A stretch of DNA of 63,688 nucleotides, counting the filler, from Eremomyces bilateralis CBS 781.70 (lineage: Eukaryota), in assembly GCA_010015585.1 (NCBI GenBank). It is 5 parts of 5 records of this genome, joined end to end, with 100 filler letters (N's around TTAATTAATTAA, not from the genome) between each part and the next. Parts side by side here need not be neighbours in the genome. Positions count along the whole stretch, not along the records: positions 21,095 to 39,390 come from ML975205.1; 4 more parts are not named here. One strand, written 5' to 3'. The notes below the pieces were generated by a model. It made no database searches. It was not told where the DNA came from and was given only the letters and a program-made list of their open reading frames with translations. Positions 11,108-39,490 of the stretch are shown in pieces. How positions within the stretch are numbered: the stretch's first letter is position 1; each line of letters begins with the position of its first letter. The position numbers were made by a program, and so were the translations under genes.

Positions 11108-12706
11108 ATGGCAGAAGCGCTCGCGATTGTTGGCGCACTCGCTGCATGCTTGCAGCTCGCCAAAGGATTTTCAGAACTCGGCAAGTCGATTGTCGCAGCC
11201 AGCCAGGGCATACGCTACGTACCAGAATATATTTCGGAACTGAAAGATAGCGCGGAGTTGTTTACGATAAGCCTGAGAAAACTCGTCAGAGCTGCGAAGA
11301 AAGCATATAGCGATAATAAAGAATCTACGGAAGCACGCGAGACTGCAAAAGCGATGGATATTATCAGATCTCAAGGCAGGAAACTGAAACCAAAGATTTA
11401 CGACCTTGTAAGGCAAGTCGAGGGCAGGCTGTTCTCCTCGACATTTTCGCAATTGTTTAGCAAGCTTCGTGTACTGTTCAAGCAGACGGGTGTGCAAAGC
11501 CTTCAGAATTCCTTACACAGGTTGATGCATACTACCCACCTACTCGGGTCGGGTATCATCCTTGACACACTTCTCGCACGAATCAAGAAGCTAGAAGATG
11601 AGGATATTCCTGTTTCAGAGGATTTAAGAGACGAAGTGTAAGTACTATGATTACAAGTCTGCAAATCGATTGTCGCTGATGCTGGCCGTAGATCATTGCT
11701 TAGACAAGAGATTCAAACCCACAGATCCATTGCGAAAGACTTAGAAAAACGACTCAAGGTTCAAATTGAGGGCTCGAGTACTGGAGACAGTCTTTCGCGG
11801 GATATGGCGAAAATGCTAGATGCTTCACAAAAGCTCGATCATTACGTGGAAAGAACAGTCTCTAGGGTCGCCCCCGAATTGGTTGCGACACGTAGACGGA
11901 AGAGGAAGGTTCGCTCGTCTAGACCACCGAGATCTCTACGGGAGTCGTATCTAAGCTCCTACCACGCTTCGCCTCTACATTCTACTCCACCAACCTCCCC
12001 TTCGAGTGCTAGGCATTGGCAGCAAGAGCGAAGTCGGGGCATTCGAGAATTACCTAGAACACGCAGCACTACTCCGCCATCCCAAATGGGGCCTCCACTT
12101 TTTAATGTCCCCGAACGACGGGAAAAACGAATATATGTTTCATCCAATCGTGTAGTGAACAATGCTCCCTCGGAAGGAGTTGAGGCAGAGGAAGCTATTC
12201 TAGAGGTGTCACCATTAAGTACAATTGGACCTGTCATTATTGTGAACGAGAACAATGAAGTCGAGGAGCAGCATAGGGAGTGGCACCTAGACGCAAGTAT
12301 GCTGCGCGACGCAGAAGAAACAAGCCTCCTACCTACTGTTTTGGCCGAGGAGGAAGTAGCCGCCCAGTCGGAACGACGTGTTCAGTTGGAGGCGACCGAC
12401 GATGACCATGATTCCAGAAGTCGAGAGACCGGTTTTGTTGAAGGTCACTCCCGTCCCCGAATCGTTTGCGAAGATGACATCCAGTCACTTAATAGGACGA
12501 ACGATTCATCGTCCTTACAAAGTCATCGTCGACCACGCGCTCATCGAACCAACAGCAACTCTAGATCGGTCGATATTTTCTCGCCGCCTGAGTCTAAACA
12601 AAGACATGAAGATCCGGAAGTGGCTAGAGATGAGCGATATAGGCCCTTGGCTCCATTTGATCGCAACGATAGGAGAAAGTGGGGGAAGCGGCCTATAGGA
12701 CCATAA
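11108..12706 (+). CDS. Hypothetical 2-exon protein (~514 aa) with fungal helical N-terminal (SesA/HeLo-like) domain and disordered C-terminus
   Basis: Starts MAEALAIVGALAACLQLAK. The GT-AG intron 11638-11691 joins ORFs 11108 and 11696 in frame. Confidence 0.7.
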
Positions 12707-18288: not shown

Positions 18289-20994
18289 TTAGTTTAAAAG
18301 AAGGTAAGGGCGGGTTCGATACCGTGTTAAGAGAGTAGAGAGTTGTCCGTCTAAGAAATTCGACCCTACGTAGTTCTTCTGTAGGTCCCGGTAGAACTTG
18401 GCCGTTTTAAGCTCGCAGAGGCCGCCAACGGAGAGAACGAGGGGGAAGAAGTCCTTACCGTGAGCCCGATACTTTGCAATCTTGGCCTTGGCTGCCTCGT
18501 CGAGGACCTGAAGGGGCGGCCTAGCTTTGACGGAGCTCGCGTGGACTGAGACGACGGTGAGGTCGTAGAAGGTCTCTCCAGGGGGGCCCAGGACCGAGAT
18601 GTCAGCGCGGTGGCCAGTGGGGTCACGTGAGTCAAAGGGAGGCTCCTCCTTGATAGTCCTCGAGGGGTAAGCCACGCGCATGGCGCGCGCTAAGACTCCT
18701 CGGATCGTATCATGGCGGGTGGCGGTCCCTCGTTGCCTTGTTCGGCATGACTCCGCGTGGAAGGGTGTGTTTTCTATTCCGCAAGGGCAAATGGGCTCTT
18801 GGTCGCCTCCGAGGAGCATTCGAAGTTTCAGGGCCGTAGCTAGCTCTCCGTCCGCAAGAAGAAGTGGTTTTTATGAAGGCAGGACGTTAAGCCAGTGGCG
18901 ACCGAAAAACGACGCGTTTTCCGTCAGGGTAGCGACCCTCGTGGGGTCCTTTTGGTCGCTAAGGGTCTTTTGGACCCGTTCTAGCCGTTGACGGGCCAGA
19001 GATTGCCCGATTTCCCTCTGGGGGGGCGTGGGGGGCCTTGGGGGGTCTGGAGGGAGGTCTGGGGGCGGAGGAGTTCCAACAAAGACGTAGGCGACTGGGA
19101 GGGGCTGAACTGGGTCGTCTGGGTCAATCAAGGGATCCCGGAGGGGCGTAGGCCAGCCAAGGGCGGTCCGGAGGGACTGGGAGGCGAGCTTTGAGGCCGA
19201 TCGGTAAGCTGGGATGCTTAGTTCCTCGTAGAGGGGGAGACCGAGGCCTCCGAGCTTCACCGGCAAGGCGATTAGGTCTCGATCGAGCGGGTAGGACGTC
19301 GGGTCGCCTCGAATCAGGCCAATGGCGCGCTGGATTTCGTCGTCTGCAGTCTGCCAGGTTTCTCCGAGGCCGAATGGGTGTAGAGTTCTTAGGAGGTGGC
19401 GGAGGGTTAGCGACACGCACGTGCGTAGGAGGAGGAGGGCTCCTTGTTTCGGGAGGGCGAGGATCCGGGAGACGGCGGTCTTGAATTCGACGATTTTCGC
19501 TTCTAGGAACTGTTTCCTAGCGTCGTCCGGTCCGATGAAGCTTCCGAGTGCCCGAATTCCCTCATTTCGGACGAAAGTAGTCGAATATTCGCTACTTTTC
19601 GTCTCGTTTAAGATCAGGGGCGCTCGGAGGTTCCGAAGGGTGTCCCGAACGATTCCCCGGGCTCCTTCGTTTGGCGAGAAAAGGTAGATATCGTCGAGAT
19701 AGGCGATCATCTTGACTCGTGGGCCGAGGACTTCGTGGAGGGCGCTGAGGGTATCCCGAATTGCGATCGAGAAGAAGAAGGGGCCGAGGGGATCTCCTTG
19801 GCGGACTCCTTGGGCGGACGTGAGGAGGGGGCCGCCTGTCGTGGCCAGAATGGAGGGTTCTCCGTAGGCCCATTGGGCTAGGCGGTAGAAGTCTGGGGCG
19901 TACTTGTAGATTCCCTTAGCCATGGCGGTCCTATCGACGGTATTGAAGGCGTTTGAGAAGTCCAACGACGTAATTCTGGAGAATTGGGCCTTCTGGTCGC
20001 CGAAAACGGTCCGTTCAATGGCACGCAGGGCTGGTTCCACTCCTCCAGGGGATCCTACGCCAAGCTGGTATGGGAGAAGGGAGCTTGGCGAGTAGTTTTC
20101 CCGCAGGATCGCCTTGGCTACGACTCGGTAGAGGAGATCTCCGACGGCGATTGGTCGAAGGCCTCCGTCTTCCTTTGTCAAGGCCACCAGGCGGGCGGCG
20201 AGGAGGAGGTCTCGTCCGTGGGCGGTCCCTTGGACGATCTGCTTACCGAGGAGTTCGAGAAACGAGGCAAATTGAGGCTCCTTTGTTGCGATTTCCGTCA
20301 GAGCCTTGGTCCATCCGCTCAGTCCTGCCGAGGTTTCCGTGGGAAGGGAGCGTATTGCGGCCCAGATGGTGTCCTTGGATGGGGCACGTCCGGAGCGGGG
20401 CTTGAGGGAGCCTCCAAAGGGGCGGGGCGGGCCAGGGGGGTGTTTTTTCCGCAAGATTTCCAGGTTTTCCGCTGTTAGCGGGGCGGGGCGGGCGTCCGAG
20501 ATCAGAGTCCGAACGGCTCGGGAGAGGTAGCCACGTTTAAGGAGCTTTTGGGCCTTCTCGAGGGTCTTTGGCTGTAGTTCTGATATGTCCTGGGGGATAG
20601 GCGGCGAAGGGGAACGAGGAGGCGTTAGAGGTTCCATGATCGGGGGCGGAAGAGGGGCAGGAGGCCGAATGTTTGGGTATTTCCGGAGGGTTTCCGCGAT
20701 TGGTTGTCCGAGGCCACCTTCTCGAGCTAGCGCGAGGACTTTTGGGAGCAGGAGGATGTCGAGGAGGGACGCGGCGGTTGGGCGGGCCAGGTATACTGCG
20801 GAACAGCGGGCTGCGGCGGTTGCGAAGGCTTTGGCGTATCTTCCGTGCAGAGGGTCTTCGGTTGGGGCGACATGGGCGTAGCTGAGGAGCACTTCGAGCT
20901 CTGGGGAGATTTCCGGGACCGGAGGGGATTCCGTTGGCTGGCTGGGGTTATCCGGGCCTGTAGGAGGCGGCGGAGGGGCGGGGCGGAGATTTTT
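18289..20994 (-). mobile_element. RLE-type non-LTR retrotransposon (CRE/Cnl1/MoTeR-like), one premature stop, 5' end in a gap
   Basis: RT motifs GLRPIAVG, LDFSNAFN, GVRQGDPLGP, AYLDD and LGGLG. These are followed in the same frame by CPCG...HAESC, RHD, RADI, YDLTV and KIAKY (restriction-like endonuclease). ORFs 18871-20892 and 18289-18819 share a frame and are separated by a single TAA. Confidence 0.88.
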
Positions 20995-21411
20995 NNNNNN
21001 NNNNNNNNNNNNNNNNNNNNNNNNNNNNNNNNNNNNNNTTAATTAATTAANNNNNNNNNNNNNNNNNNNNNNNNNNNNNNNNNNNNNNNNNNNNTAGGCC
21101 TCGGATGGGTGCGGGTGGGTTGGGTTGGGGTTCTCTTGGCGTGCGGGTGGGGTGGGGTGGGGTTCTCCAAACCTGGATTCCCAACCCAACCCCACCCGCA
21201 TGCCAAGCAACCCAAACCCAACCCCACCCGCAGGCAACCAGGGACAAACCCAACCCCACCCCATGCCAAGAAACCTTGGGGGAACCGCGGGGTGGGGTTT
21301 TCTGCGGGTTCAACCCCAACCGCAAGATGGGTTGGGTTTCTTGGCGCATCTGATGGGTTTCTTGGCATTATTAAAAGGGCTTTAGACTAGATTAGGCTAG
21401 TAGCATATAGA

Positions 21412-21469
21412 GAGAGAGATTCATACGCCCGTCAGGCCTCTCTGCGAGGCCCATGTGGGGAACTAGCTA
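21412..21469 (-). mobile_element. 5'-truncated SINE/LINE-tail insertion, family D, with (TC)n tail
   Basis: 16-bp TSD GCTAGTAGCATATAGA at 21396-21411 and 21470-21485. Confidence 0.85.
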
Positions 21470-21804
21470 GCTAGTAGCATATAGAAGATGTGGTAGTCAG
21501 ATGTGGTAGTCAGATATGGTAGTTTAGTCACGCGGTATAAAATGTAAGTAGGAAGCTTTCTATTTAATTCTGGCTATAGAAGTTTATCCGGCGCATTAAG
21601 CAGGATCATTAATCTAAGAGTATACGATGCTCACTCACCCATCGTATACCCAAACCTGCGACTTGTTATTCGCCTTAACTGACAAATTGGAGAATTATAA
21701 AAACGCCATCCATTGACACCCATAACTCATGATATACGTTAAGCCATAACTAAAATATATTAGTTTATATAATCATGGTAGGATTCAGACCTTACCTTCA
21801 CGTT

Positions 21805-22346
21805 TTACTTTCGAGCGTGCTTCCTAACCGAAATGAAAGACCCGTCGCACAACCTTTCCACCAGCTCGATATCCTTCGCCTGGAGAGTTACGCGCTTGGC
21901 ATGGATGGCACAGAGGTTGGAATCTACGGTGTGTTAGTTATGTGGTAGTCAGGAGGAAGTAAATAAAAACATACTCTCAAAAAGCTTTACAAGGTATGCT
22001 TCTGATGCTTCTTGGAGCGCCTCGAGCGCAGACCTCTGGAAACGATACCCTCCATCGTAATTGAAGTCACCTGAGATCTCGCGCACAAGTCGAGCAAATG
22101 GCAATTTCGGAATCAGCAGTTCGGTTGATTTTGCCAACTGCTTGATCTCTCGAAGCACAGACACTTAGAGGTTTAGCTACTACTACACCGACTACTACAC
22201 AGAAACTTACTGCCAGGACGTTTGAAGTATGCGCCAGTCTTCGTCTTCCTTACAGGCTTTCTCGAATTCGTAGACCGTTTCCTGGCTGGGGGGCGCTTTC
22301 TGCCAGGAGTGTGCTTTCCGCCGGGGGGGCGGTTTTGAGATGGCAT
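21805..22346 (-). CDS. Divergent histone H3-like protein (147 aa, 3 exons: 22346-22211, 22163-21975, 21923-21805)
   Basis: Spliced product: [147 protein letters not shown]. Clear H3 histone fold with GT-AG introns of 47 and 51 nt. Confidence 0.92.
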
Positions 22347-23117
22347 GGTTATTCGTCGAATCGTTGGTAGAGTTATGACCGTATTGTTTGTTAGGTTTCG
22401 GTTGTAGAGAAGGCTAGGTATGGAGGAGAAAAAGGAAGGTAAAGAGAGAGGACTAGGTTGTTGGTTAGTCGACGTTGTTATGAGTAAAGGTAAGGTTTCT
22501 CACCAGGTTATCACTTCTGAAAATAATTCCAAGTCCTTTTTACCAATAACTCTGGCAAATCTTGATCGTTTTCGACCAAACGAAGTAATCTCAGCGTGGT
22601 AGTACTTGTGGTGGTCACCAAGAGCAATTTCCTCAAGATGGGAGATCTCCTAGGATATATAAAAATTAGTAAGAAGTGAAAATTAATGTCGAAAGTGACA
22701 TTCAAGTGGCTAACCGTCCTGCGAGCTTAATTCTACAAGATTTAAGCTTACTACTGCATTCGAAGTGCGGTAGTATTCGTGGTAGTCGAGTTATGTTATA
22801 AAAGGAAGAAAAACGGGTGAGTTAACGAAAATATCGAGATTTCTAAGTGTTTTGAATTTCTTCGTATTTCACTTCACTTATGAAAACCTAACCAAAATAA
22901 ACTATCCCCCAAACAAAACCTTTACCAAAACAAAACTTTCCTCTTAATGAAACTTTCTTCCCCTTACCCTAACGCCTCCCAATCTTGATTATTTTCCATG
23001 CTAGTTACAAGATTGTAAGAGTTATTAATATTTCAAAAGTGAGAATCTCAATAACTAACTTTCTGCTAGCTTCACCTATCCCATGATCCAGTGACCGGCA
23101 GTCTTAACGAGACGACA

Positions 23118-24547
23118 ATGACGGCTAAGCGGAAGGCGGTGGCCGATCTCTCTACCAATGCGAATACAGCTCGCGAGCGAAAGCGTCGGGATGCCCGGGA
23201 TGCAAGTCGCGTCGAATATGAGAACCGCAAAAAGGCTGATCAGACTGCGGTATCGCGCGCACGGGCAGCTATAGCGCTGTTACCAAATTTCAGGTCGAGT
23301 GGGACCGACAAGCGACAAGAGCTACTTCGTGTAGCGGTCGAACAAGTGACCAACGAAAGGTCAGTTATGTGTACCAGTCAATGTGGTAACTAGTATTTTT
23401 ACTAACTAATCTAGGATTAATCGTGGAGTCCATCACTCGCTCCATCCCCTTGCGGCGGTCCCTGCGACGACTAGGACTGCGCAGGACCCAAAGTTATTTC
23501 TCAATAAGCTCTATCCCGATGCCGATAACGATAGCGATTGGGAAGATCTCCATGAAGATATGGAAACTTCGGTCGATCAGGATTTCGAAATCCTAAACAG
23601 TATGCCCCTCCCGCCAACATTTAATTCGACGGATTTCAGGTTCTGGGCGGAATACAAGCGAACTGTTGCCAAATATGATTTCTATAATCGGATCGAATTG
23701 GGAGAATGGCGTCGCTTTACCAAACGATGGCAACGAGCACGAAAGGCGGTTCTATATAAGAGCCGAGCTATCAACCGAGCGAGAACTTTAGACGGTCGGC
23801 TTAGCCTTGGAAAGCTATGGCTTCTGGTAGACACCGTGGAGATTTTGGTAAGTGTGGTAGTTTATGTGGTAGTCCTATACTAACCGCATTTAGCGATCGA
23901 GTGCCGAACTGCAAAGGCTGATCCGAGCAGATTGGCAATCTTTCGGCTTAAACGCCGAAGACCAAGATTGCGCAGAACTTGAGTGGATAGTTCGTAATGC
24001 CCCGGCGTTGGACGACTGGCTGTCATCTCCGGCGTTCTACTCGAAGGGTCATTTAGATCTTCACCTCGTATGGCCGAAGCTCCCCTTCGCGATTCGATAT
24101 TTTCTCGTAAGTTTAATGCGGTAGTCAGCGTGGTAGTCTCTTTTCGGCTTATTTGACATTTTAAATCAGAACCAGAGCGCCACTTTCTCAACGGCGCCTT
24201 TTGCGCACCAAATTTTCAAGGATCGACACGAGAGAGGCATTTTAATTGGGTTCCTCGCTTGGGCTGGTCGATACCAATATGAATTCCCCTTCCCGGCTTG
24301 CTTGTGGGATGCGCCTGATAACGATGAAAGATGGGGACTTTCTAAGATTAGCGACTCGAAGACGGCTGCCATGATGTATGATGGTTTTAAACTCGTCTTT
24401 AAACCGCCTGGGAACTGCGAAGCCCCCCCTGACGCCTACCGCATCGACTGTCCAATTGATAGAGATGCGATGATCGGAGATGGATACTTGCTATCGCTCC
24501 GCCCTAACGGTGAGCGAGGGAACGCTATTTGGAAAAGGAGGATGTGA
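23118..24547 (+). CDS. Orphan hAT cargo protein ORF2 (~421 aa, 4 exons: 23118-23359, 23415-23847, 23894-24106, 24170-24547)
   Basis: Three GT-AG introns join the ORF-track pieces 23091, 23560 and 24302, plus an intervening exon, into one stop-free frame. Basic helical N-terminus. No recognised domain. Confidence 0.75.
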
Positions 24548-24836
24548 CAAGGCATCTAGCTATTCGATTGATAGGCTGGAACATTGACTACCACACCGAC
24601 TAGTACGCCCTTCGCAGACATAGTTCTGCAGCATATGAATAACGGATTCGGGCAGAATATGGGGGGCTGGTGGACCAGGAATTAATATACATTCTGCTTC
24701 AACCCATTTCCTGTGATGAATTGATAATATTCTATTAAGTACTTCAATCACGATAATACATTACTGCCATACTGACTACCACACTGACTACCACTTTTTA
24801 TCATTACTTAAACCTGTCTTTTACTCTATTTCTAAG

Positions 24837-27738
24837 ATGGCCTCTTTATACACTGATTCAGAGCCGACTGAGCCCCAGTCAAGCTTTACCGAAGCAAGGT
24901 CTGCGATCGAATCGTCCGACGGAATCGGTGTCGATGGTCTCCGGCAGTATACGATCAAAAACACGACATATTATGTTGTTGACCGAGATAACCCCGCGCC
25001 GTTTGACGATTGGTGGAAGAGAACCCAATTCTGCCTTAGGAACAAGGCTAGAGACCCTGACAAGCGGTTTAAGCCAACGTGGGATAGAAAAGTGGTTCGT
25101 TCTGATTACTGGTCCTACTTCGAAGAAATCGCCGAGTCTGCTACAGGGGTTGTTAAGATCCATTGTATCCGCTGTGGTTTTGTTGGGGGCCACCCAGCTG
25201 TAATCACTGAGAGGCTAGACGGCAGTCTCGGATCACGTACTGGCAATTCGACAATGAAGGCGCACCTTCGGTCAGGAAATTGTATGCAGAAAGCTGATAA
25301 CAAGGGCCTAACCCAGTTGACATTTCACGATATTACCGATCCAAGGCGCAAGGTAAGAGACTACTATATGAACTAGTATATACACTTTCCCTAATAGAGT
25401 TTAGGCTAGAGTTGATAGGACCCGAGCTGCCCAATTCCTTGAGGGACAACGGGTTACCTCGAAGCATTTCTTGGATTGTCTGGCTCGAATGATTGTTTCT
25501 CGGGGTATCCCTATGAACTTCTTCGAGGATCCTGAAGTCCAGCGGTCCTATCTCTGCCTAACGACTACTGAACCACCATTTAGTAACCCAAAGAGTCTGC
25601 GGAATCGGATCTTCACTCTCTATGAATCCGCGACGAAGGCAACTCGGGATGATCTTGCCCACCCTGATAGCATCAAACAGAAAATTGGTCTCGCGGTCGA
25701 TGGCTGGTCCGCAAAGTCTGGCCGTACAGGCTATCTTGGAATTCTCGCCTATTGGACCTCGACGGACATGAAATGGCATGAGGCGCTTTTAGCGTTCACG
25801 CCAACTGAGGCTAGGCATTCCGGTCGGGACCTAGCGGAGATGATCATGCAGACACTACTCAAGTTTCGAATTACTGACCGTCTACGCTCAATCACTGCAG
25901 ACAATGCTTCGTCAAATGGCACGATGGTCGCGTCTATCAACGACGAGTTGAAATTTCTGTTGTCGTCACATGGAAGCTTAGACCCGGTCGTATCAATCCC
26001 TTGTATCTCCCATGTTATTCAGCTGGTCCAGGGAGAACTCCTCAAAGGCCTCAAGTGCGTGGCGGAGAATTCGGAGATTATCCGAAACTGGGATGAAAAG
26101 GAGTTTGTGAGGGAGCAGCGCGCAATTGCGTCGTATGGGGCGGTGCCAATTACACTTTGGAAGGTGAGTCTCTACTCCTTGTAAAATGTGGTAGTCAATG
26201 TGGTAGTCATTACTAATATAGTCTAGGCTCGACAGACCGCTAAACACATTGTGGCATCGGAGAAACGACTGAGAGATTTTCTTAAGATCCAGCAGGAGCT
26301 TATCGACCAGGAACACCCGACCCTGGACAAACAGGAGCTCTTCTGGGTTAGCCTGCTCCGGCAACCCCTGCGTCCACTACAAGACGTCAAAACACGATGG
26401 GACTCGACTACGCAGATGCTTGTTCGACTCCGCATTCTTCGCCAACCCCTTGACCGTTACTGGCGTCAGGTTTCGAAGCAGTCGATGGCCCTCGATCCTC
26501 AACAATGGGATATCATCGAATACCTTATTGATATGACCGCTCCACTAAATGCATTTACGCAGTCAATTGGCAGATCGTCGTCCCCATCAATCCACAGAGT
26601 CTACACGATCTACGATACTACATTCGGCCATCTTGAATCTACGATCGATAGACTTAAGAAGAAGCATGCTTCGTGGAAGATTAGCCTCAAGGAGAGCTTG
26701 GTGAATGCCGTAGAGAAGTTGAAGAAGTACTATAGCAGGACTAGTGTTTTTACAGCTCTTGATGAAGCATACGCGTTCTCTTTCCTACTCAGTCCTAGGA
26801 CACGAAATACTGCTTTCACTTCATCGGCTTGGAAAGGGAGGGCTAATAACCGGGGACAAAATTACCGAACAGTCTACATGGGGAGACTGCGGGATCATTG
26901 GGAGGAACACTACAAGGTTGACAACCCAACCCAATCAGAAGAGGGAGCAGCTTATACACGCGGAATTGACTATGTGCGTCAACGGTTGCATCAAGATGTT
27001 CAGCCCACCGAGGGTTCAAACTCTCGATCAATGGACGAGCTAGCAAGATATTTTGACTCTTGTAAGTACATATTCCCCTTTATTCATACTCCGATCTCTT
27101 ACTAATCTTTTAATATAGGCTCGTCAAACAATATTGAACCTCTCGAAGCTTGGCGCGAGAATGGAAACTACATAGCCTACCCAACAGTTGCTCGGATGGC
27201 TCGCGACTACCTTTGTTCTCCGGCAGCATCCGTTGGCGTCGAGCGCCTATTTTTCCTTGCTCGCTGTCAGTCAGAGTTCAATCGGGAGTATAAGAGTGAA
27301 ACACTCGAGGCGATCATGGTGGCCAAGGCGAGGTTGAAGCTTGACTTTCAGATAGAATCCGAGCGTCTCCAAGAGCTGGAGGAAGAGCTAGGTGATATCG
27401 GTGATGCTGATACGTCTACGCTAGACACACTGGTTATAGAATCGGACACTCGTAAGAGGCATACTAATAGTATCCTGCGCGCGACGGGTGAAGGGGAAAT
27501 TCATTTGATCAGCGACGGTGAAGATAGTGAGGATGATGTTGAGGATGACGGGAGGGATAGCGATCCTAATACTGGGGAAGATAGGAGGGACGCTGATCAG
27601 AGCGATGGTCTAGGGGAACCAGACGAGACACTAGATGAGTTAGGTGAAGATTACGATACAGCTGGAGTAGCAAAGAGGACACGAAGTAGTACTATGGCAA
27701 GTGAACCTCAAGACCGTTCGAAGCGGAATAGGTTATAG
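24837..27738 (+). CDS. hAT transposase (~909 aa, exons 24837-25352, 25405-26163, 26227-27061, 27119-27738)
   Basis: BED-like finger (CIRC...HLRSGNC), motifs AVDGWS, ITADNASSN, CISH and TRWDST, and dimerisation domain SVGVERLF. All introns are GT-AG and in frame, with no stops. Confidence 0.93.
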
Positions 27739-28153
27739 ATAGGTTTTCTTCTATTAGAGTACTTTTGAATGAAATTAATTTCTTTCCCTTGACTACCACA
27801 CTTGACTACCACATATGACTACTATATTTAATCCCCTATTCTATCCTACAACCGGATCGTACCTCTAGTTATGCCAAGAAACCCAACCCATCTTGCGGTT
27901 GGGGCTAAACCCGCAGAAAACCCCACCCCGCGGTTCCCCAAGGTTTCTTGGCATGGGGTGGGGTTGGGGCGGGGTTTCTTGGCGTGCGGGTGGGGTTGGG
28001 GTGGGGTTTTGAAATATTGGCTTCCCACCCCAACCCCACCCGCAAACCGGCGGGTGGGGTTGGGTTTGGGTTTGCCAAGAACCCGCACCCAACCCGTTTT
28101 TTGCGGGTTGAACCCGCACCCATCCGAGGCCTAAGATTAACCTTGATCCTGAA

Positions 28154-28307
28154 GAGCCGGATCCTACGAAAACAGGCTGTTCCTGCAGCTATTTTATATG
28201 GTTTAAAATGGTGATCTTTTCCCTAAGAAGGGGAAGAATAGGGGTATAGAATCGAATACGGAATGAAGCCGTGGGGAAACGCCAAGAAACACAGATATTC
28301 TGTGACA
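28154..28307. repeat. LTR-like fragment family E, ending TGTGACA
   Basis: Diverged copy of 55140-55298. It abuts the hAT right end. Confidence 0.75.
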
Positions 28308-28327
28308 AGATAGAAAATGCAGATGGT

Positions 28328-28435
28328 GGCACAAGGCCACAAGGTACCAATGTATGTAATTAGTCAGCTTAGGTAGTTCCCCACATGGGCCTCGCCGAGA
28401 GGCCTGACGGGCGTATGAATCTCTCTGTCTCTCTC
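28328..28435 (+). repeat. SINE-like family D copy
   Basis: ...GGGCCTCGCCGAGAGGCCTGACGGGCGTATGAATCTCTCT, shared with the other D copies. Confidence 0.85.
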
Positions 28436-28451
28436 GTGGCCTTGTATAGTA

Positions 28452-29408
28452 TTAATATACACAGTACGTACTTTTGCATAAAGCACATGCCGCAGCATTA
28501 CACTCCGGACAATGAAAAGTAAATTTAGTGGGAGTCTCTCCACAAAAGATGCAGCTTGCTTCTCCTTTCTTTTTGGGCCAGCCTAGCTGGGGATGAATGC
28601 AATCCCTCGTAGGATGCTGAGTCGCGGGTTGCCCTGGCTTGGCTTGTCGACGCTCCGCGGCTTCTCGTATGCTTGCCCAATTCTGTCGAATTGCGTCCTG
28701 CTTCTCCTCTATCAATATGGACTTAAGCCGCTCCTTCGCAGCCATCTCTCGCTCTTGTCTTGCTCTCTTCGCAGACTCTTCAGACTTTCGTTCCGCCTCC
28801 ATTTCTTTCTGTTTGTGCAACCGTTCTATCGCCGCATGTTCTTGTTCTTCCCTAGCCTTTCGTGCCACCTCCCGTGACCGATATTCCGCCATTCTTTCTC
28901 TCAATTCCCTGTCTCGCGCCAGTCGCTCTTCCTCAGCTCTCCTGCGTGACGCCCTTTCCTCTGCTGCTTTTGCATCCTGCTCTGCTTGTTCCCTAGCGGC
29001 TCGTTGTTCCTCTGCCATCCTACGTGCCCGCTCGGCTTCTCGTCTGAGCTCTTTATTTCGGCGCTGTGTCTCTTGCCATATGCGATATTGGACCCATTCT
29101 CCTCGTAATTGTGGGTAATATGCGTCATATTCCGAGCGCTTTGAAGCATCACGGAGACATTCATAGGCCTCCCTAATCTGACCTGGCGCTTTAGCTTCTC
29201 TCTGCTGTTTAGAATTCTTAGTACTTACCCTGCGAAAATCGTGAGCATCAGTGATCTTCCCTGGAGCTTGTTTGTCTGGATGATGCTTTTTTGCCAGTAA
29301 ATGGTGTGCCCTTTTTATGTCCTGGAACGTTGCTGTTTGCTGTAGACCAAGGGCTAAGTAATAGTCTGACATTTGTGGACGCTCTAGCTCTGGTATAGTC
29401 TCATCCAT
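28452..29408 (-). CDS. DnaJ-domain protein with coiled coil and C-terminal Cys-rich region
   Basis: DYYLALGL...HHPDKQ J-domain. Probable in-frame 51-nt intron after DFRR. C-terminal CxxC pairs. Confidence 0.85.
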   Translation of the reverse strand: MDETIPELERPQMSDYYLALGLQQTATFQDIKRAHHLLAKKHHPDKQAPGKITDAHDFRRVSTKNSKQQREAKAPGQIREAYECLRDASKRSEYDAYYPQLRGEWVQYRIWQETQRRNKELRREAERARRMAEEQRAAREQAEQDAKAAEERASRRRAEEERLARDRELRERMAEYRSREVARKAREEQEHAAIERLHKQKEMEAERKSEESAKRARQEREMAAKERLKSILIEEKQDAIRQNWASIREAAERRQAKPGQPATQHPTRDCIHPQLGWPKKKGEASCIFCGETPTKFTFHCPECNAAACALCKSTYCVY

Positions 29409-29683
29409 ATTTTACAACAAATGCGCATGGCATACCCTAGCAATAACTTTAATCACTGCAACGGTCAAACTTGTGTAGTAGTTAAAACAAGCGTCTATGG
29501 CGGTTCGCGCTTGTTCAGAGTTGATCTGAACCTATTTCTACCGTAAGCAATATCTACTCTACTATGTTTTCTTTTCTGGCTTCTATCCAATCACACACAC
29601 CATATACGTGTATTATCATGATTGGCCGCTGAAGACGCATTCCAGCTTTTCCACAAGCCACTACATATGTATCACCATAGCCC

Positions 29684-29916
29684 TGACACGGTCTGGATGC
29701 GCAAGGTCTGCGATTACCAAGTTCCATTAATCTAAACTGAAGAGAGAGAGAGAGAGAGAGAAGAAATCTCCCGGCACCTTTGTGCGCGAGATAGCGACTC
29801 TCCTCTCCAATGCCCTACTGCTGTGTTACCATGTTTGTTTGCTTCTCTGATATAATCCACCAGCCACGTCTTCAGCCACAACCAAGGGAACAGGCCGCAG
29901 GCCTGGGACCATAACA
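29684..29916 (-). repeat. Solo LTR family B (no matching TSD)
   Basis: Reverse complement of family B. Flanks AGCCC and CTAAA differ. Confidence 0.9.
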
Positions 29917-30269
29917 CTAAAGAACGACTCGTCGAAGAAGATCAGAGTAAACGTAATCACTACGGAGACAATAGATATAGAAGAGTTATGGGACGAGACA
30001 CTTGCCAAGGATGATCAGTACTAGGTTCTCCTTTAGGCCACGAATGAAAAGGCTAGGCGGGTACTATTATAGTACAAGCACTTAAAGCTATCAATTGTCA
30101 TGGGCTGTAAGGACATAAGCCTCCTGTAGTCATGTGACAGGGTCACATGACTAGAACATAGAGAATTAGTATATATGGTTTCCAACCCCAATGACCCCTG
30201 TTTGGGATCATTGTGATCTTTTATGGTCCAATGGTATTAGCGCGGAGGGTTGGTCACGTGTCATTACAG

Positions 30270-30870
30270 TAGAGGAGGACCGTTAAAAAGAGAATTCCTA
30301 TGTAAATGGGAAGGCTATGCGGAACCGACGTAGGAAGCTGCGTAGTATATCGAGGATACAGTAGCGCTAGATGATTACGAACAGAAGACAGGGTGCGATA
30401 TCTTCAATCCTCTTAACCTAGATAATCCCCATTTCTTGCGGAGGAGGGGGCATTGTTATGGTCCCAAGCCTGGGACCTTGGTTGTGGCTAAAGACGTGGC
30501 TGGTGGATTATATCAGAGAAGCAAACAAACATGGTAACAGCAGTATGTGACAGTCTTGGGCTTCGCCCAGTCTGTGTGTTGTGGCCTTGCGGCCTAAGGC
30601 AGAAGGGATGGGTAGACTGTTTGCCCACAGATGTAAATAGCAGATCGCAGTAAGAGAGATCTTCTCCTTCTCTCTTTAGCAATTCAACAGCGTTACCAGC
30701 TTACCAAATCCTTCGTGGTTTGGGCCCATGACACAGTAGGGCATTGGAGAGGAGAGTCGCTATCTCGCGCACAAAGGTGCCGGGAGATTCCTTCTCTCTC
30801 TCTCTCTCTCTCTTCAGTTTAGATTAATGGAACTTGGTAATCGCAGACATTGCGCATCCAGACCGTGTCA
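30270..30870 (+). mobile_element. 3' end of a chromoviral Ty3/gypsy element: chromodomain relic, PPT and 3' LTR family B (30454-30870) with nested LTR A
   Basis: Chromodomain with stops, REFLCKWEGYAEPT*E...ALDDYE. The PPT GGAGGAGGGGG lies just before TGTTATGG. Confidence 0.85.
30546..30733 (+). repeat. Solo LTR family A (188 bp) nested in LTR B
   Basis: TG...CA ends and TSD CAGTA at 30541-45 and 30734-38. Confidence 0.95.
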
Positions 30871-31102
30871 TAGATAGATCAATCAATCACGTATCAATAC
30901 TTCTGCATGAGGCACTGTAGATATAGCGCCGCAGCCTTGCGAACCGACTTAACGTTTCGCCATGCCTCCGACCATAGACAACTCTCCGAAAACACCTGGA
31001 GAATTGGCCACTGATAGGGCATGGTCATAACAGGTCTCCCTAGTGGCAGTGACTTGCCGCTTTCACTAAAGTTGAACTACCAAAACATCGACGAGCGCGA
31101 AG

Positions 31103-31965
31103 ATGGACGGCGAGAACGGGTACGATAGACACCACAGCGAGATCGACGTCGATGGGTTCAATGAGGGTGGACCTGCGAAAACTCCGCTGGCTACGAGCCG
31201 TGCTCAAAGCCCGTATACCCAACACCCTGACATCGATTTCAACGGCTTGAGCTGGCCCAGTAAGTAGCACGCCGGCACGGAGGCAAGATGGCTTACGAGT
31301 ATAAGGCAAGGGCGCCCGTGAGAGGAAGGAAGCTACCGAGCAGGAGAAGGAAGAGCGGCTGTCAAATCTATCCGGTGCCGTAAGGAAAATACTGGACTGC
31401 ATTGGCGAAGATCCCGACCGTGAAGGCCTACGGAATACACCGGATCGCTATGCAAAAGCGCTCCTCTTCTTTACGAAAGGCTACGAAGAAAACTTGCGCG
31501 AAATTGTGAACGGCGCCGTATTCCACGAAGACCACGACGAGCTCGTAATCGTAAAGGATATCGAACTCTTCTCCCTGTGCGAGCATCACCTCGTGCCCTT
31601 CACCGGAAAAGTATGCAAAAAATCACCCCGGTATTTGCGCACTTCATCTAACTCTCAAATAGATGCATATTGGCTATATCCCCAACCGCCGAGTGATCGG
31701 GCTCTCTAAGCTCGCCAGAATCGCCGAGATGTTCTCCCGCCGGCTCCAGGTGCAGGAACGGCTCACGAAACAGGTAGCTCTCGCCCTTTCCGAGGTTCTC
31801 TATCCGCAAGGCATTGCTGTCGTCATGGAGTCTAGCCATCTTTGTATGGTGACGCGTGGCATCCAGAAGACAGGGGCAACCACGACAACCAGCTGCATGC
31901 TCGGCTGCATGCGGTCGATGGCCAAAACCCGAGAAGAATTCTTGAATCTTATCAATCGGAAATAG
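31103..31965 (+). CDS. FOL2: GTP cyclohydrolase I (3 exons: 31103-31259, 31306-31610, 31663-31965)
   Basis: Motifs [55 protein letters not shown] and HLCM. The start codon is uncertain, and this may be a paralogue rather than the housekeeping copy. Confidence 0.92.
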
Positions 31966-33217
31966 AGCGTGTCATTTGTAGTATCATGCAATGGTCTGTC
32001 AGCGTAGTTATTGCTATGAATGGCGTTCGCGCCGGTGTTAATCTACTTAGGTAAGGCCCTTTAAGTCCTGAGAGTGATATACATCCTATTAATATTAGTG
32101 GCAATGGTACTGTCCCACTCTTCAGGCTCTCGATAACATCTACATTCGAACGTTCTGCTTCGCTCCGCCGCTCATCTGTGTGAACTCTTAGCTCAGGTAT
32201 CAGGAAGAGTCAAGCTTCATGCCTCGTTCGACGTATCGTATCTATTTATAAGCGCTGCCCATGCCGCAGGGTGTTCCTGGGGAATGTCAAACATATCCGT
32301 AAGTAGAGCCAGGTTATCATGTATTGGCATGCGGGGTCATACTATCAAGCCTGATTTGTGTCGCCATGCGATTGGACGCGAAATATGCACCCCTCCTTAG
32401 GTCATCTATGTATCATCATCCCATTCCTGACCGGAATTCCACTGCTGGTTTGCACTCTGCGATGACGACGATGAAAGATCGCCGCCAGAAAAGATTTGGT
32501 GTCAACATAGCAATCAACCATCGATTGCTTCTGCTTTTCCGATCAGTTGATTCCCTAGGTACCCAAAGTAGCGTCAGCGGTGAGAGTAGCACTCTTGGAT
32601 GGGGGTTTGGATGTGCGCGATTGGGAAGGCGAAGGTGTGCATTTTCCTTGTAGGACTGAAATCAGGTTGACAAGGTGCTGGAGGTGGGACATTCGACCTT
32701 ATTCGCGCATCACCACGCACAATGCATCAAAAATTACAAGGTCAAATGTGTCGGTCGCTCTTTATGGACGAGGGTCCGTTATGGTGTATCTCGTCAGGAG
32801 ATGCACTCTTTCGGAATTATGTGCCGTAAGGAACAAAGCCTCTTTCGTCGAGGATAGGAAAGACCGATGCCGATACGGTGTACGAGGTCATGTTTCACGC
32901 AGATGTTACTGGGAAAAGATGCTGATGCATAGTAGAATGACGGCTGCTACAATTATCCTGTTGCTTTACTCTGCACGGAAGAATCTGACTGGGCTTCGAC
33001 TGACTACTCACAGATTTATAATGGACGTATGTCTGCTTCAGATCGACATCCGACGAATAGAGCACTAGGATCATAGTATCTGCAATCAGGTATAGTGCCG
33101 CAGGTTTCGCCTCTCGATGTAAACCGCTTCAATACGGCCGTTGACCTCAATAAGGCCCATATCAACCATTGTCGCCATTCCTAATGCGAAATACTCGCAC
33201 ACTCATGCCGAACGGAA

Positions 33218-36200
33218 ATGGCCACCCTTGACTCCCTAAAGCGGGCCCTTCGGCGAAAAACCAGAGCAACGGCATCGTCCTCGAAGCAGCCCTTGTCCGA
33301 CTCACAGTACAGCGCCGGCTTCGATATCTTGCTCCGAGACTCGGGATGGGTGACATACCGGGATTTTATCATCCCTCAACTATCTCAGCTGCTAAGCCTT
33401 CTCGTTAACTCGCGTGTCCATATCTCGGCACTAGAAATCGGACCGGGCCCGAAGAGCCTCCTTGGACATCTTCCCAGCGGTCTAAAACGGAAGGTCAGGA
33501 GATACACTGCATTCGAGCCCAATGGCTTGTTTGCTACGAGGTTGGAAGAATGGCTTAGCTCGGCCCCCGAGTCAGAGTCCCCGCTGCCCTGTCTGGAAAG
33601 GGCGCCCGACATCCACCGAATTCCCTTCGTCCTGGACGACAACATAGGTAGCGTTACCGGTACCGGTACGAGTGATGAGGAAAAATACGATATCATCCTA
33701 TTCTGCCACAGCATGTATGGCATGAAGCCCAAACACAGGGTGATCGAACGTGCGCTAGAAATGCTTGTTAAGCGGCCACAAGGCGGAGTGGTCGCGATTT
33801 TCCATCGCGACGGGGCCCTGGACCTCGACGGCTTGGTGTGCTATCGAACGGCTTCTTTCCCTACCGGAGTCGTTCGCGTGGCAAATGACGACGAGGTACT
33901 AGATAGTTTTGCTCCTTTCGTCGCGGGGTTTGTCGTGCAGGACGTGGACGTGGACAAGGCTATCCGAGTTGAGTGGCGTAAGGTGTGCCGCGCCTTGAGC
34001 CGTCGCGAGGATGCCTATCCAGATCATCTCTTGTTCAGCGCGCCCAACGTCATGGCGGCCTTTACCCAACATGCGACCACGTTGCCAGAGCTGACGGCGC
34101 AGGTGCCATTGGTGAAAGAGGGCAAGATAGTTAAAAACCGGGAGGCTCGCCTTCACCGCCCCGCCTCGATTATTAGGCCGACAGAGGTCCGACACGTCCA
34201 GCAGTGCGTTCAATGGGCTCTTAAGCACGGGGTCGGCCTGACCGTCGTCGGTGGGGGTCACAGCGGCCATTGTCTCTGGCCCAACGTTGTTTCGGTCGAC
34301 ATGGGCGCCTTTGATCAAGTACACATTGTCTCAGCGGGGGAGGATGGAGGGGATTCTGGTTCCGATTCTGGTTCCTTGGTCGTCGCCGAGGCCGGCTGCA
34401 AGACGGTGGATATCGTCCGCAAGGCCATGGCGGCGGGTGTGACAGTGCCCCTAGGGGCTCGCCCAAGTGTCGGTGCGGGGCTGTGGCTACAAGGCGGCAT
34501 CGGGCACCTGGCTAGGTTGTATGGGCTCGCGTGCGACGCCATTGTAGGTGCCATTATGGTTAGCGTCGACTCTAGCCAGGTCCTCTGCGTCGGCCATGTA
34601 CCAAGCCAACACCGGCCGGCCGGTGCCGTTCGCCCAGATAACGAACCCGATCTATTATGGGCGATGAAAGGCGCCGGGACCAACTTTGGCATCGTGGTCA
34701 GTGTGATTTTCAAGGCTTACACAGCTCCGACCTACCTGACTCGAAACTGGGTTGTCCCGCTAAGTGACAACCTCGAGGCCCGGTTCAGACTCAGTGACTT
34801 TGATAAACTCGTCGCCAGGAAGCTCCCCCGGAGCTGTTCTGCAGACGCGTATCTGTACTGGGACGCTGGCCAGCTGCGTCTTGGCATGACCATGTTCGAA
34901 TCTTTCACGACAAGGCTCACCTCTGCAAAACCCACGCTCACGCCTGTAGGTGAAATTTGGGGGCCGGGAGACGATTCCAAGGCCGTAGACGGCATCGGTT
35001 TGTTTGAGGGCGAGATGTACATGTCCGGGATGCACGGCGGGCACGGCAGCGGCAAGACCTCCTCGTTCAAGAGATGTTTATTTTTAAAAAACATCGGAGA
35101 AGCGAACGTCGCCGACCGATTGGTGGCGGCCGTTGGGACTCGTCCCTCGCCACTCTGCTATCTCCATCTCTTGCAAGGTGGCGGAGCGGTCGGCGACGTT
35201 GCGGCCGATGCCACTGCTTTCGGCTGTCGGGACTGGGACTTTGCCTGCGTGATAACTGGTGTCTGGCCCTGCGACCAAGATGGTACCGAAGCCGCACTAT
35301 CTGCCGTGCGGTGGGTTTACAACGTCGCCGGGGACTTGTTGTCCCTGAGTAGCGGAGCTTACGGCGCCGACCTTGGGCCGGACCCCAGAGACGCCGTGCT
35401 GGCGGCCAAGGCTTTTGGACCGAACCGGCCGCGCCTGGCCCGTCTCAAACACAGCTTGGACCCGCGTAATGTACTGGCTTATGCCTGCCCACTCCCGAAA
35501 GTGCAGATGCAACAGAAGCTTATCATTCTTGTCACGGGCGAAAGCTGCGCCGGCAAGGACTATTGTGCCGACGTCTGGGTCTCCGTGTTCATGAAAAGCG
35601 CTCACAAAAGCCTCACGGCGCGTGCGGTCAGCATTAGCGATGCGATCAAGCGAGAATACGCGGCGGCTACCGGTGCCGACTTGAGCCTCCTGCTTGGGAA
35701 CCGTGCCTACAAGGAGCAGCACCGCCCGGCGCTCACGACATATTTCCGAGAACGGGCGCGGCAACGTCCTCGGCTGCCACAGGAACATTTTCTGAGCGTC
35801 GTGTCTGGCGCCGTCGACGTGGACGTGCTGCTAATCACCGGGATGAGGGACGAGGCGCCGGTCGCAACCTTGTCGCATTTGGTGCCAGACAGCAGGCTTA
35901 TCGAGGTTCACGTCCAAGCGAGTGAACAGACGCGGCGGGTTCGCCGAGGGTGCCACATCGGTGACAACGGTGGTGATGACTACGGTGACGACAACAAGGA
36001 CAACAACAGTCGCAAGTCGAGTTCAACAGCTTGGGATTACTGTCATAGTTTCACCATCGACAACGACACGACCGGGAATAAGGCGGCAACACGGTTTGCC
36101 GAACGATACCTGCTTCCCTTCCTCCACGAGGACCTGCAGCGACTGGCCGACATGGTGCGCCAGATACCCGACTACCCGCGCCAAGGCATCGAGTTCTGTC

Positions 36201-36736
36201 ACGTGCTCGGCATCGAGTTCTGTCACGTGCTCGGCATCTCCCAGAAGCCCGGTGGGCTGGCCCTGTGTACGTCGCTGCTGAAAACCCACTTCGCCGGTGA
36301 CTGGGCCAAAGTCGATGCGGTGGTGTGTTGCGAGGCCGGCGGGTTTGTCTATGCGTCGGCGTTGGCCTCGTGGGTCAATGTGCCATTGGTGCTGACTCGG
36401 GGCGCTGGCAAGCTCCCTCCACCCACCGTGTCGGTTATCAAGCTCTCATCGCATATCTCTTCTTTAGAATCCAACGATTCGACGGAGAAGCGGATCGAAA
36501 TGGAACGGGATGTCCTACCCAGGGGGGGTTTCGTGGTAGTGGTAGACGATGTACTCTCCACCGGGAAGACGCTCTGTGCGGTGTTACAGCTTCTGGATAA
36601 AGATGGAATCGGCTCCGATGATGTCAGCATAATGACCGTGGCCGAGTTTCCGGTTCACCGTGGCCGGGAACTATTGCGCCGGCGTGGGTTTGGCAGAATC
36701 AATATTCAAAGCCTTTTAGTCTTTGGCGGTGCTTAG
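33218..36736 (+). CDS. Multidomain enzyme, 1172 aa: SAM methyltransferase-like + FAD-linked (BBE/VAO-type) oxidase + phosphomevalonate/NMP-kinase-like P-loop + type I phosphoribosyltransferase
   Basis: LEIGPGP/FCHSMY (methyltransferase), GGGHSG and GAGTNFGIV...LKHSLDPRNVL (FAD oxidase), VTGESCAGKDY...AYKEQHR (kinase) and VVVDDVLSTGKTL (PRPP-binding loop). Intronless. Confidence 0.88.
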   Translation: MATLDSLKRALRRKTRATASSSKQPLSDSQYSAGFDILLRDSGWVTYRDFIIPQLSQLLSLLVNSRVHISALEIGPGPKSLLGHLPSGLKRKVRRYTAFEPNGLFATRLEEWLSSAPESESPLPCLERAPDIHRIPFVLDDNIGSVTGTGTSDEEKYDIILFCHSMYGMKPKHRVIERALEMLVKRPQGGVVAIFHRDGALDLDGLVCYRTASFPTGVVRVANDDEVLDSFAPFVAGFVVQDVDVDKAIRVEWRKVCRALSRREDAYPDHLLFSAPNVMAAFTQHATTLPELTAQVPLVKEGKIVKNREARLHRPASIIRPTEVRHVQQCVQWALKHGVGLTVVGGGHSGHCLWPNVVSVDMGAFDQVHIVSAGEDGGDSGSDSGSLVVAEAGCKTVDIVRKAMAAGVTVPLGARPSVGAGLWLQGGIGHLARLYGLACDAIVGAIMVSVDSSQVLCVGHVPSQHRPAGAVRPDNEPDLLWAMKGAGTNFGIVVSVIFKAYTAPTYLTRNWVVPLSDNLEARFRLSDFDKLVARKLPRSCSADAYLYWDAGQLRLGMTMFESFTTRLTSAKPTLTPVGEIWGPGDDSKAVDGIGLFEGEMYMSGMHGGHGSGKTSSFKRCLFLKNIGEANVADRLVAAVGTRPSPLCYLHLLQGGGAVGDVAADATAFGCRDWDFACVITGVWPCDQDGTEAALSAVRWVYNVAGDLLSLSSGAYGADLGPDPRDAVLAAKAFGPNRPRLARLKHSLDPRNVLAYACPLPKVQMQQKLIILVTGESCAGKDYCADVWVSVFMKSAHKSLTARAVSISDAIKREYAAATGADLSLLLGNRAYKEQHRPALTTYFRERARQRPRLPQEHFLSVVSGAVDVDVLLITGMRDEAPVATLSHLVPDSRLIEVHVQASEQTRRVRRGCHIGDNGGDDYGDDNKDNNSRKSSSTAWDYCHSFTIDNDTTGNKAATRFAERYLLPFLHEDLQRLADMVRQIPDYPRQGIEFCHVLGIEFCHVLGISQKPGGLALCTSLLKTHFAGDWAKVDAVVCCEAGGFVYASALASWVNVPLVLTRGAGKLPPPTVSVIKLSSHISSLESNDSTEKRIEMERDVLPRGGFVVVVDDVLSTGKTLCAVLQLLDKDGIGSDDVSIMTVAEFPVHRGRELLRRRGFGRINIQSLLVFGGA

Positions 36737-36756
36737 CAAAGGACGGAAAAGATCTT

Positions 36757-36860
36757 AGAGAGAGAGAGAGAGAGATTCATACGCCCGTCAGGCCTCTCTG
36801 TGAGGCCCATGTGGGGAACTAGCTAGGATGACTAATTACATGATGGTTGCCTTGTGTCTA
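36757..36860 (-). repeat. SINE-like family D copy
   Basis: (GA)n followed by TTCATACGCCCGTCAGGCCTC... Confidence 0.85.
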
Positions 36861-39390: not shown

Positions 39391-39490
39391 NNNNNNNNNN
39401 NNNNNNNNNNNNNNNNNNNNNNNNNNNNNNNNNNTTAATTAATTAANNNNNNNNNNNNNNNNNNNNNNNNNNNNNNNNNNNNNNNNNNNN

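Follow-up and report, generated by a model that had tools for sequence, protein, structure and literature searches.

Structure, genes and transcription of the element

The window, that is, the whole stretch of DNA analysed here, comprises 63,688 nucleotides (nt), linkers included, from Eremomyces bilateralis CBS 781.70. Its scaffolds are chained by four identical N44-TTAATTAATTAA-N44 linkers (20995–21094, 39391–39490, 54877–54976 and 62196–62295), and sequences facing each other across a linker are therefore not truly adjacent. The scaffold at 21095–39390 (18,296 base pairs, bp) begins with a 7,039-bp hAT transposon (21095–28133) that contains a gene for an H3-like histone (H3L), a second open reading frame (ORF2) and a transposase gene (Table 1). 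This element is an intact member of the H3-like-carrying hAT transposons of Dothideomycete fungi. An earlier note on the same DNA had presented the arrangement as new; this premise does not hold, since the kind is already known from the accessible parts of two papers, which describe a three-gene hAT in 2013 (PMC3538342) and H3-carrying hATs in 2019 (PMC6710886).

The element is bounded by 22-nt inverted ends with 100% complementarity, in agreement with the earlier note, and a search of the window with the 22-mer TAGGCCTCGGATGGGTGCGGGT at up to three mismatches returned only the two ends (two of two matches, 0 expected). Elements of the hAT superfamily are recognised by short inverted ends (about 10–25 bp), an 8-bp target-site duplication, a dimerisation domain and an RNase-H-like DDE core; the ends of this element, at 22 bp, are of the expected length. 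Because the left inverted repeat starts at the first base of the scaffold, there is no left flank, a target-site duplication is unreadable and the right junction alone is visible. At this junction, contigs of the runs X2, X3 and X4 agree from 28134 on and carry differing letters before it, and an uninterrupted relative of the right-flank repeat at 47463–47510 reads ...GAGCGTAGAT followed directly by AGATTGACC. The element is thus inserted within a copy of a very abundant repeat, the homology of which restarts directly after the last inverted-repeat base. Internal to each inverted end are about 250 bp of repeats of the GGGTGGGGTTGGGG type, with left and right mirrored (97 nt, 84%). Single-strand folding of the left 150 nt (21095–21244) produced a long hairpin at −63 kcal/mol (z −10.55, a value reached by 0 of 200 shuffles), and the right end (27984–28133) also formed hairpins (z −6.62).

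The Pfam scan covered 11 exon translations of the three genes, of which three had a match. Two of these belong to H3L, where the Histone family (PF00125) was found on exons 2 (E 1.9e-16) and 3 (E 9.9e-07), and the other is the hAT dimerisation domain Dimer_Tnp_hAT (PF05699) on exon 4 of the transposase (E 1.8e-09, 37.7 bits against a cut-off of 21.4). The splice models also agree with public records: a 147-residue "histone-fold-containing protein" of E. bilateralis (P0020) is 100% identical over H3L exon 2, and the 421-residue hypothetical protein P152DRAFT_463103 [Eremomyces bilateralis CBS 781.70] (P0001) is a 100% match to ORF2. The three intact spliced genes proposed in the earlier note are confirmed. 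The GC contents of the three coding sequences are alike (0.50–0.52).

Exon 2 of H3L is about 70% identical to many H3 histones, and the best 60 of 177 matches in a PDB sequence search with H3L are all named H3 (top E 1e-32, residues 22–133 aligned). Aligned with four H3s, the protein shows 53–58% identity, compared to 44% with a wasp CENP-A. The canonical H3 tail carries K4, K9, K27 and K36; the N-terminal tail of H3L cannot be aligned with the ARTKQTARKS...KAPRK tail of H3. H3L also has a longer loop 1 (NYDGGY versus KTD in H3) and a C-terminal extension. The histone fold, in contrast, keeps about 70% identity to H3, including one 11-residue stretch that we take to be the H3–H3 contact, and H3L should thus remain able to join H4 in nucleosomes. 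In its divergent N-terminal tail and its longer loop 1, H3L resembles CenH3/CENP-A proteins, but it is closer to H3 by the matches and identities given above, and lies within a transposon at about five copies; an assignment as CenH3/CENP-A was rejected. As judged from these alignments, H3L falls outside both the canonical and the centromeric H3s. The residues RSALEALQ, considered as shared derived residues of H3L, were dropped as such, since they also occur in a Tilletia H3 variant.

No Pfam family was assigned to ORF2 in either the standard or the lenient scan. An exhaustive phmmer search against 1.84 billion representatives returned 18 proteins at E ≤0.001, including ORF2 itself. The other 17 are 80–237 residues long and 28–43% identical to ORF2, and several of them start or stop near its exon borders (residues 3–80, 81–224 and 305–420); they resemble ORFs of exon size called on unannotated fungal DNA. 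The presence of these 17 relatives at such identities argues that ORF2 is a real, conserved coding family. A metagenome locus (L001) recovered in an alignment scan with ORF2 exon 1 was judged spurious (29-residue match, E 0.038, no H3 or transposase match). In the ESM Atlas, the best feature score for ORF2 was 0.77 and every structure had a TM-score (a measure of structural similarity) of ≤0.34. The AlphaFold2 model of ORF2 has a mean confidence score (pLDDT) of 59, with no part but an N-terminal helical hairpin modelled confidently; in a wide search by VIA-align, matches were obtained only for a helical hairpin over residues 28–102, all of them generic helical hairpins with a Z of at most 6.1. 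Complex prediction for ORF2 with H3L gave scores of 0.00 and 0.00, which count neither for nor against an interaction.

The transposase is divergent. Beyond the dimerisation domain, the lenient Pfam scan yielded a weak match to the hAT-like RNase-H family PF14372 (E 0.095, 13.4 bits against a cut-off of 27). Comparison of exons 2 and 4 with PDB sequences returned nothing useful, with exon 2 lacking any match, and a word-based search for relatives of exon 3 found none at E ≤0.001 among 1,328 candidates. By eye, the protein contains DGWS, DNASSN, CISHVIQL, TRWDS and VERLF, which we take to be typical hAT motifs, and a CxxC...HxxxxxC stretch near the N-terminus, presumably a zinc finger.

Evidence for splicing came from contigs of run X3, which carries the label "RNA?" as a guess, no listed run being recorded as RNA. 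The X3 contigs skip all nine predicted coding introns (9/9) at the predicted bases, together with four introns in untranslated regions (UTRs); within the element, 12 GT..AG joints were found, in X3 contigs only. None of these joints is present in contigs of the DNA runs X1, X2 and X4, and X3 was therefore taken to derive from complementary DNA. An intron of the flanking DnaJ gene (29178–29228) is skipped in X3 contigs as well. H3L, ORF2 and the transposase gene are thus all transcribed and spliced. The X3 contigs leave about 24503–25070 uncovered, including the transposase start, and no conclusion was drawn from this gap.

H3L and ORF2 are divergently arranged, with a spacer of 771 bp from ATG to ATG (about 770 bp had been claimed). 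A single X3 contig of 2,555 nt has its left-hand introns on the minus strand and its right-hand introns on the plus strand, indicating that the H3L and ORF2 transcripts meet in the unspliced stretch between them (22715–23014), which is probably a two-way promoter.

Contig depth was used as a proxy for copy number and not as a strict count. An X1 contig of 3,520 nt (21441–24960) runs through H3L and ORF2 with 0 differences at a depth of 883.6, and an X1 contig of 2,187 nt in the transposase region (24992–27178) has a depth of 876.7, compared to 162.4 for a flank contig. The resulting element-to-flank ratio of about 5.4 is even from 21441 to 27968, with no step from the cargo to the transposase. 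Likewise, body contigs of X2 have depths of 1,142–1,370 against 251–274 in the flank. By this proxy, the body of the element, cargo included, is present at about five near-identical copies. The even depth and the 3,520-nt contig without a difference also bear out the view of the earlier note that the cargo belongs to the element; by the same proxy, the other copies do not lack the cargo, a lack that would have spoken against this view. Pieces of the element were also found in X4, which bears another organism label and comes from another study: 19 pieces, of which 17 are at ≥99% identity, occupy 21 of 30 bins. The X4 pieces on 21095–29600 cover H3L, the ORF2 start and the transposase, and the flank repeat is in X4 as well. 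The match could reflect a closely related organism, a wrongly labelled sample, contamination or transfer.

A paired word in the element and its published relatives

A 9-bp word, GTGGTAGTC, recurs throughout the non-coding parts of the element. All 13 exact matches in the window (13/13, against 0.30 expected) lie inside the element. At up to one mismatch, the 7.0-kb element contains 18 sites and the other 56.6 kb contain 15; all 18 sites of the element fall within the non-coding 37% of the element, in 11 clusters (0.37^11, or about 2e-5). The clusters are mostly pairs spaced 12–13 bp apart and are located in both subterminal regions, the H3L 5′UTR, the shared spacer, the ORF2–transposase spacer and five of the nine coding introns. 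A further coding intron has a copy with two mismatches, and the word is absent from transposase intron 3, ORF2 intron 1 and all four UTR introns (4/4). The same intronic motif had been claimed for all three genes; each does have at least one such intron, but at ≤1 mismatch the motif extends to only five of the nine coding introns. Several of these introns contain little beyond the 5′ splice site, a pair of the word, the branch point and the 3′ splice site. The orientation of the word relative to transcription is mixed, which favours a role in DNA over one in RNA and points to action at the DNA level. Two of the ORF2 relatives, P0003 and P0014, read Val-Val-Val through the counterpart of ORF2 intron 1, as GTGGTAGTC does in one frame; this is only a hint that the ORF2 relatives may keep a similar word there.

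A literature search on H3-carrying hATs surfaced only PMC3538342 and PMC6710886, and word searches for histone found no mention in the accessible parts of PMC5751038 and of the preprint 10.1101/2025.11.13.688278. Manning et al. (2013) described, in the accessible text of their paper, a roughly 5.6-kb hAT of Pyrenophora tritici-repentis comprising transposase, central ORF and H3L, present as 10 full near-identical and 16 short copies, with expressed sequence tags, and called it the first transduplication in fungi; the Pyrenophora H3L was considered neither a true H3 nor a CenH3 (PMC3538342). According to the accessible parts of Dhillon et al. (2019), H3-carrying hATs occur in Pseudocercospora fijiensis and five other Mycosphaerellaceae, where they are about 9.5 kb long, number hundreds of copies and have 18–20-bp inverted ends and 8-bp target-site duplications; the cargo was interpreted as a captured transcript, the Pyrenophora event as independent, and for P. 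fijiensis no other structural features were identifiable (PMC6710886). The E. bilateralis element shares with this kind an H3L and a hAT transposase within one pair of inverted ends and several near-identical, cargo-bearing copies, and has an ORF in the position and orientation of the Pyrenophora central ORF. It differs from the Mycosphaerellaceae elements, which repeat-induced point mutation (RIP) has disabled, in being intact and spliced with undamaged frames. Its own RIP indices are borderline (TpA/ApT 0.92) and were not used as evidence.

Comparisons with the consensus sequences in supplement 2 of PMC6710886, insofar as this file was accessible, were made by eye and not with an aligner. 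Gene order and orientation (H3L, central ORF, transposase) in the Pyrenophora consensus (Ptr_cons) match those of the E. bilateralis element. Both have ends with the pattern TA.GC...ATGGGT, behind which come GGGTTGGGG-type arrays, and the H3L introns occupy the same two positions with the same phases. Moreover, Ptr_cons appears to have a paired word of its own, TTATCACAG, in the spacers as well as within introns of each of the three genes, where E. bilateralis has GTGGTAGTC. In the supplement file, TGTGATAA occurs eight times and TTATCACA six times; 12 placed matches all lie in the part of the file that contains Ptr_cons, and two are without a shown place. The reverse complement of the E. bilateralis word, CTACCACA, resembles the Pyrenophora TTATCACA in six of seven core bases. 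Alternating G-rich and C-rich blocks similar in look to those of E. bilateralis are also seen at the ends of the Pyrenophora consensus. The two elements differ in length (about 5.6 kb versus 7.0 kb), in the H3L tail, which starts with ARTK in Pyrenophora and does not in E. bilateralis, and in the short recombinant form, which is known from Pyrenophora and was not seen in E. bilateralis; their hosts belong to different fungal orders. The combination in Pyrenophora of the same gene order with its own paired intron and spacer word is possibly new. If the readings by eye hold, the gene layout and a word in all non-coding parts would be family traits, and the cargo would be old and integrated.

Among the other consensus sequences, Smu_cons ends in the same nine bases, CGAGGCCTA, as the E. 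bilateralis element, and Pfi_cons contains dense arrays of its own word TAGCCGGC (17 and 19 matches in the file), which also occur in an intron-like gap of its H3 copy. By eye, GT...AG segments interrupt the H3-like copy of Pfi_cons where E. bilateralis H3L has its two introns, and the first such segment is filled with the TAGCCGGC arrays, which is odd in view of the published interpretation as an intron-less captured transcript.

A likeness of design, from another superfamily and another kingdom, is offered by VANDAL21 (Hiun) of Arabidopsis, a three-gene DNA transposon of the Mutator superfamily that encodes the anti-silencing protein VANC, the target words of VANC proteins differing between related VANDAL families (Hosaka et al. 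2017, PMC5735166, accessible parts). As with VANC targets, GTGGTAGTC is a short, element-specific word concentrated in non-coding parts, and the Pyrenophora word, as read by eye in introns and spacers, is placed in a similar way. ORF2 has no Pfam family, and the likeness between the two systems is one of design only. No histone gene of VANDAL is mentioned in the accessible parts of PMC5735166.

Possible role of the cargo and competing explanations

Our best overall explanation is that the E. bilateralis element is an intact family member with a maintained cargo, a docking word and, more speculatively, an anti-silencing function, and we regard it, taken as a whole, as somewhat better than an even bet. 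The earlier note had suggested that the histone variant and its partner protein may alter the element's chromatin or steer its insertion. H3L and ORF2 are probably maintained genes that serve the element rather than dead passengers. There is about an even chance that the pairs of GTGGTAGTC constitute DNA docking sites for an element-encoded protein, for which the transposase, through its putative N-terminal zinc finger, and ORF2 are the candidate binders. Through docking along the entire element, combined with a tail-less H3, the copies might be kept out of silencing based on H3K9 or H3K27, in parallel to the protection of VANDAL transposons by VANC in Arabidopsis; we consider this step unlikely. 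A broader proposal, which we hold to be quite unlikely, is that the Pyrenophora, Mycosphaerellaceae and Eremomyces elements represent one old three-gene lineage with a tail-divergent H3 and ORF2 as its core, and not captures that arose by chance and independently; in it, lineage-specific paired words, found in all non-coding parts and in introns of each gene, would dock a protein that loads or holds the variant histone and thereby shields the element from H3K9/H3K27 silencing. If true, fungi would have a histone-based equivalent of the VANC system of plants.

Several points weigh against a maintained and functional cargo. In no species do H3L or ORF2 have a demonstrated function, and, in the accessible text, Manning et al. 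judged an effect of the cargo "possible, though unlikely" (PMC3538342). All element-borne H3 copies in six Mycosphaerellaceae are dead from RIP, according to the accessible parts of PMC6710886. The copies in E. bilateralis are near-identical, so their open frames could reflect a recent burst, and an 8-bp target-site duplication and mobility are unseen for the element. With respect to the candidate binders, the AlphaFold2 model and the wide structure search revealed no recognisable DNA-binding or chaperone fold in ORF2, and neither a BED finger nor a catalytic core was found above the Pfam threshold in the transposase. In addition, the Pyrenophora central ORF is not among the 18 phmmer matches of ORF2, and homology between the two rests on a pattern read by eye (RERK..AD..A.......L.....Y..A....R..L).

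The published reading is passive transduplication, by which a hAT picked up a copy of a host H3 and another gene, both riding along without a role and with frames still open only owing to the recency of the burst. We consider this somewhat unlikely for E. bilateralis. The cargo is framed in this way in the accessible parts of PMC3538342 and PMC6710886, and the RIP-dead state of every element-borne H3 copy in the six Mycosphaerellaceae fits it (PMC6710886). The two X1 contigs (3,520 and 2,187 nt) contain 0 differences, so intactness within the genome says little, and Pfam, the ESM Atlas, the AlphaFold2 model and the structure search yielded no function for ORF2. H3L, however, is far from any H3 (53–58% identity, tail replaced) and yet is still expressed, with its frame and both splice sites preserved; moreover, its divergence is concentrated in the tail and spares the fold, a pattern of a selected variant and not of drift. 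The exon-sized relatives of ORF2 at 28–43% identity, the presence of the element's own motif inside the cargo-gene introns and the recurrence, by eye, of the three-gene order in Pyrenophora also argue against role-less riders.

Two further alternatives concern the unity of the element and the nature of the word. That two separate hAT ends merely flank host genes, with H3L as a host H3 variant or centromeric H3, is very improbable and was disfavoured. The left flank is missing and no target-site duplication ties the ends, and H3L resembles centromeric H3s in its longer loop 1 and divergent tail, but the depth of about 5.4 times that of the flank is even from 21441 to 27968, the exact motif occurs throughout the element and nowhere else in 56.6 kb, and the mirrored tandems of the motif are immediately internal to the two ends. 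On the right, the boundary of homology with the uninterrupted flank repeat coincides exactly with the last inverted-repeat base, the best 60 of 177 PDB matches of H3L are named H3 and not CENP-A, and the same arrangement was published as one Pyrenophora element (PMC3538342, accessible parts). The shared word might instead be a signal for RNA or for intron birth, such as a splicing enhancer or an introner-like insert. Introns with little beyond splice sites, a motif pair and a branch point would agree with this, as would, as a hint only, the Val-Val-Val read through the matching intron in two ORF2 relatives. Such a signal is nevertheless improbable in view of the mixed orientation, for example plus at 21942 in the minus-strand H3L and minus at 22190. 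Four of four UTR introns and two coding introns splice without the word, and the spliced DnaJ intron (29178–29228) has no exact copy of it. Transposase-binding repeats of hAT elements lie in subterminal regions, and the mirrored tandems of the word in both subterminal regions are like such repeats.

Transposon-borne H3 genes have been in print since 2013 and were filed as accidental captures. The E. bilateralis copy, from a third order of Dothideomycetes, is intact, multi-copy, not RIP-disabled and transcribed with all coding introns removed, and it makes directly testable whether a transposon manages its chromatin by means of a histone variant that it encodes itself, with candidate docking words and two candidate binders now defined. 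Should the cargo have no such role, the element would still be a clean, well-annotated example of a known family.

Feature coordinates and surrounding sequence

The coordinates of the element's features are listed in Table 1.

Table 1. Features of the hAT element in window coordinates; the motif is GTGGTAGTC.
Feature	Position	Strand	Remarks
Left terminal inverted repeat	21095..21116	+	TAGGCCTCGGATGGGTGCGGGT; first base is scaffold start
Left subterminal region, GGGTGGGGTTGGGG-type repeats	21095..21345	.	Mirrored by right subterminal region; first 150 nt hairpin-forming
61-bp piece of very abundant dispersed repeat	21409..21469	.	Nested in left subterminal region; 16-bp direct repeat GCTAGTAGCATATAGA on both sides
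Left subterminal motif tandem ATGTGGTAGTCAG, 3 copies	21483..21525	+	Mirrors 27790–27827 (36 nt, 83%)
H3L coding sequence	21805..22346	-	147 residues; coding introns 22164–22210, 21924–21974
H3L UTR introns	3′UTR 21750–21795; 5′UTR 22453–22503, 22650–22714	-	X3 contig joints
Motif in H3L intron 2	21942..21950	+	Motif copy in minus-strand gene
Motif in H3L intron 1	22190	-	1 mismatch
Motif pair in H3L 5′UTR exon	22596..22616	+	1 mismatch each
Unspliced 300-bp stretch between divergent H3L and ORF2 transcripts	22715..23014	.	One motif pair (22767, 22779)
Motif pair in H3L–ORF2 spacer	22767, 22779	.	Within the 300-bp unspliced stretch
ORF2 coding sequence	23118..24547	+	421 residues; introns 23360–23414, 23848–23893, 24107–24169; 5′UTR intron 23015–23069
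Motif pair filling ORF2 intron 2	23854..23874	+	From 5′ splice site to branch point
Motif pair in ORF2 intron 3	24118..24138	+	Word search
Motif copies, ORF2 stop to transposase start	24586, 24774, 24786 (span 24586..24794)	-	Word search
hAT transposase coding sequence	24837..27738	+	909 residues; introns 25353–25404, 26164–26226, 27062–27118
Motif pair in transposase intron 2	26188..26208	+	Exact
Right subterminal motif tandem	27790..27827	-	Inverted orientation
Right subterminal G/C-rich repeat region	27873..28133	.	Inverted copy of left; 97 nt at 84%, 21 nt at 100%
Right terminal inverted repeat	28112..28133	-	Insertion boundary exactly after 28133

The dispersed repeat nested in the left subterminal region has five other copies in the window, and its bin depth is 7,942, compared to about 880 for the body of the element. 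Contig depths of 4,000–12,700, against 162 for single-copy sequence, were observed for the dispersed repeat at 28134–28478 (the right flank), 21409–21469, 36760–36865, 43713–43799, 45963–46007 and 57461–57582.

The window contains no second copy of the element. The closest sequence is a distant, dead hAT-like relic at 4955–5803 (+), which contains stops and is 22% identical to residues 478–771 of the element's transposase. Neighbouring elements had been described in the earlier note as stop-riddled, which is contradicted by an ORF for a reverse transcriptase at 18874–20994 (-; RVT_1, E 5.4e-15) on the preceding scaffold; it is open for 707 residues into the end of that scaffold and looks like an intact retroelement. 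Directly to the right of the element lies the gene for a DnaJ-domain protein (PF00226, E 1.1e-14) at 28455–29411 (-).

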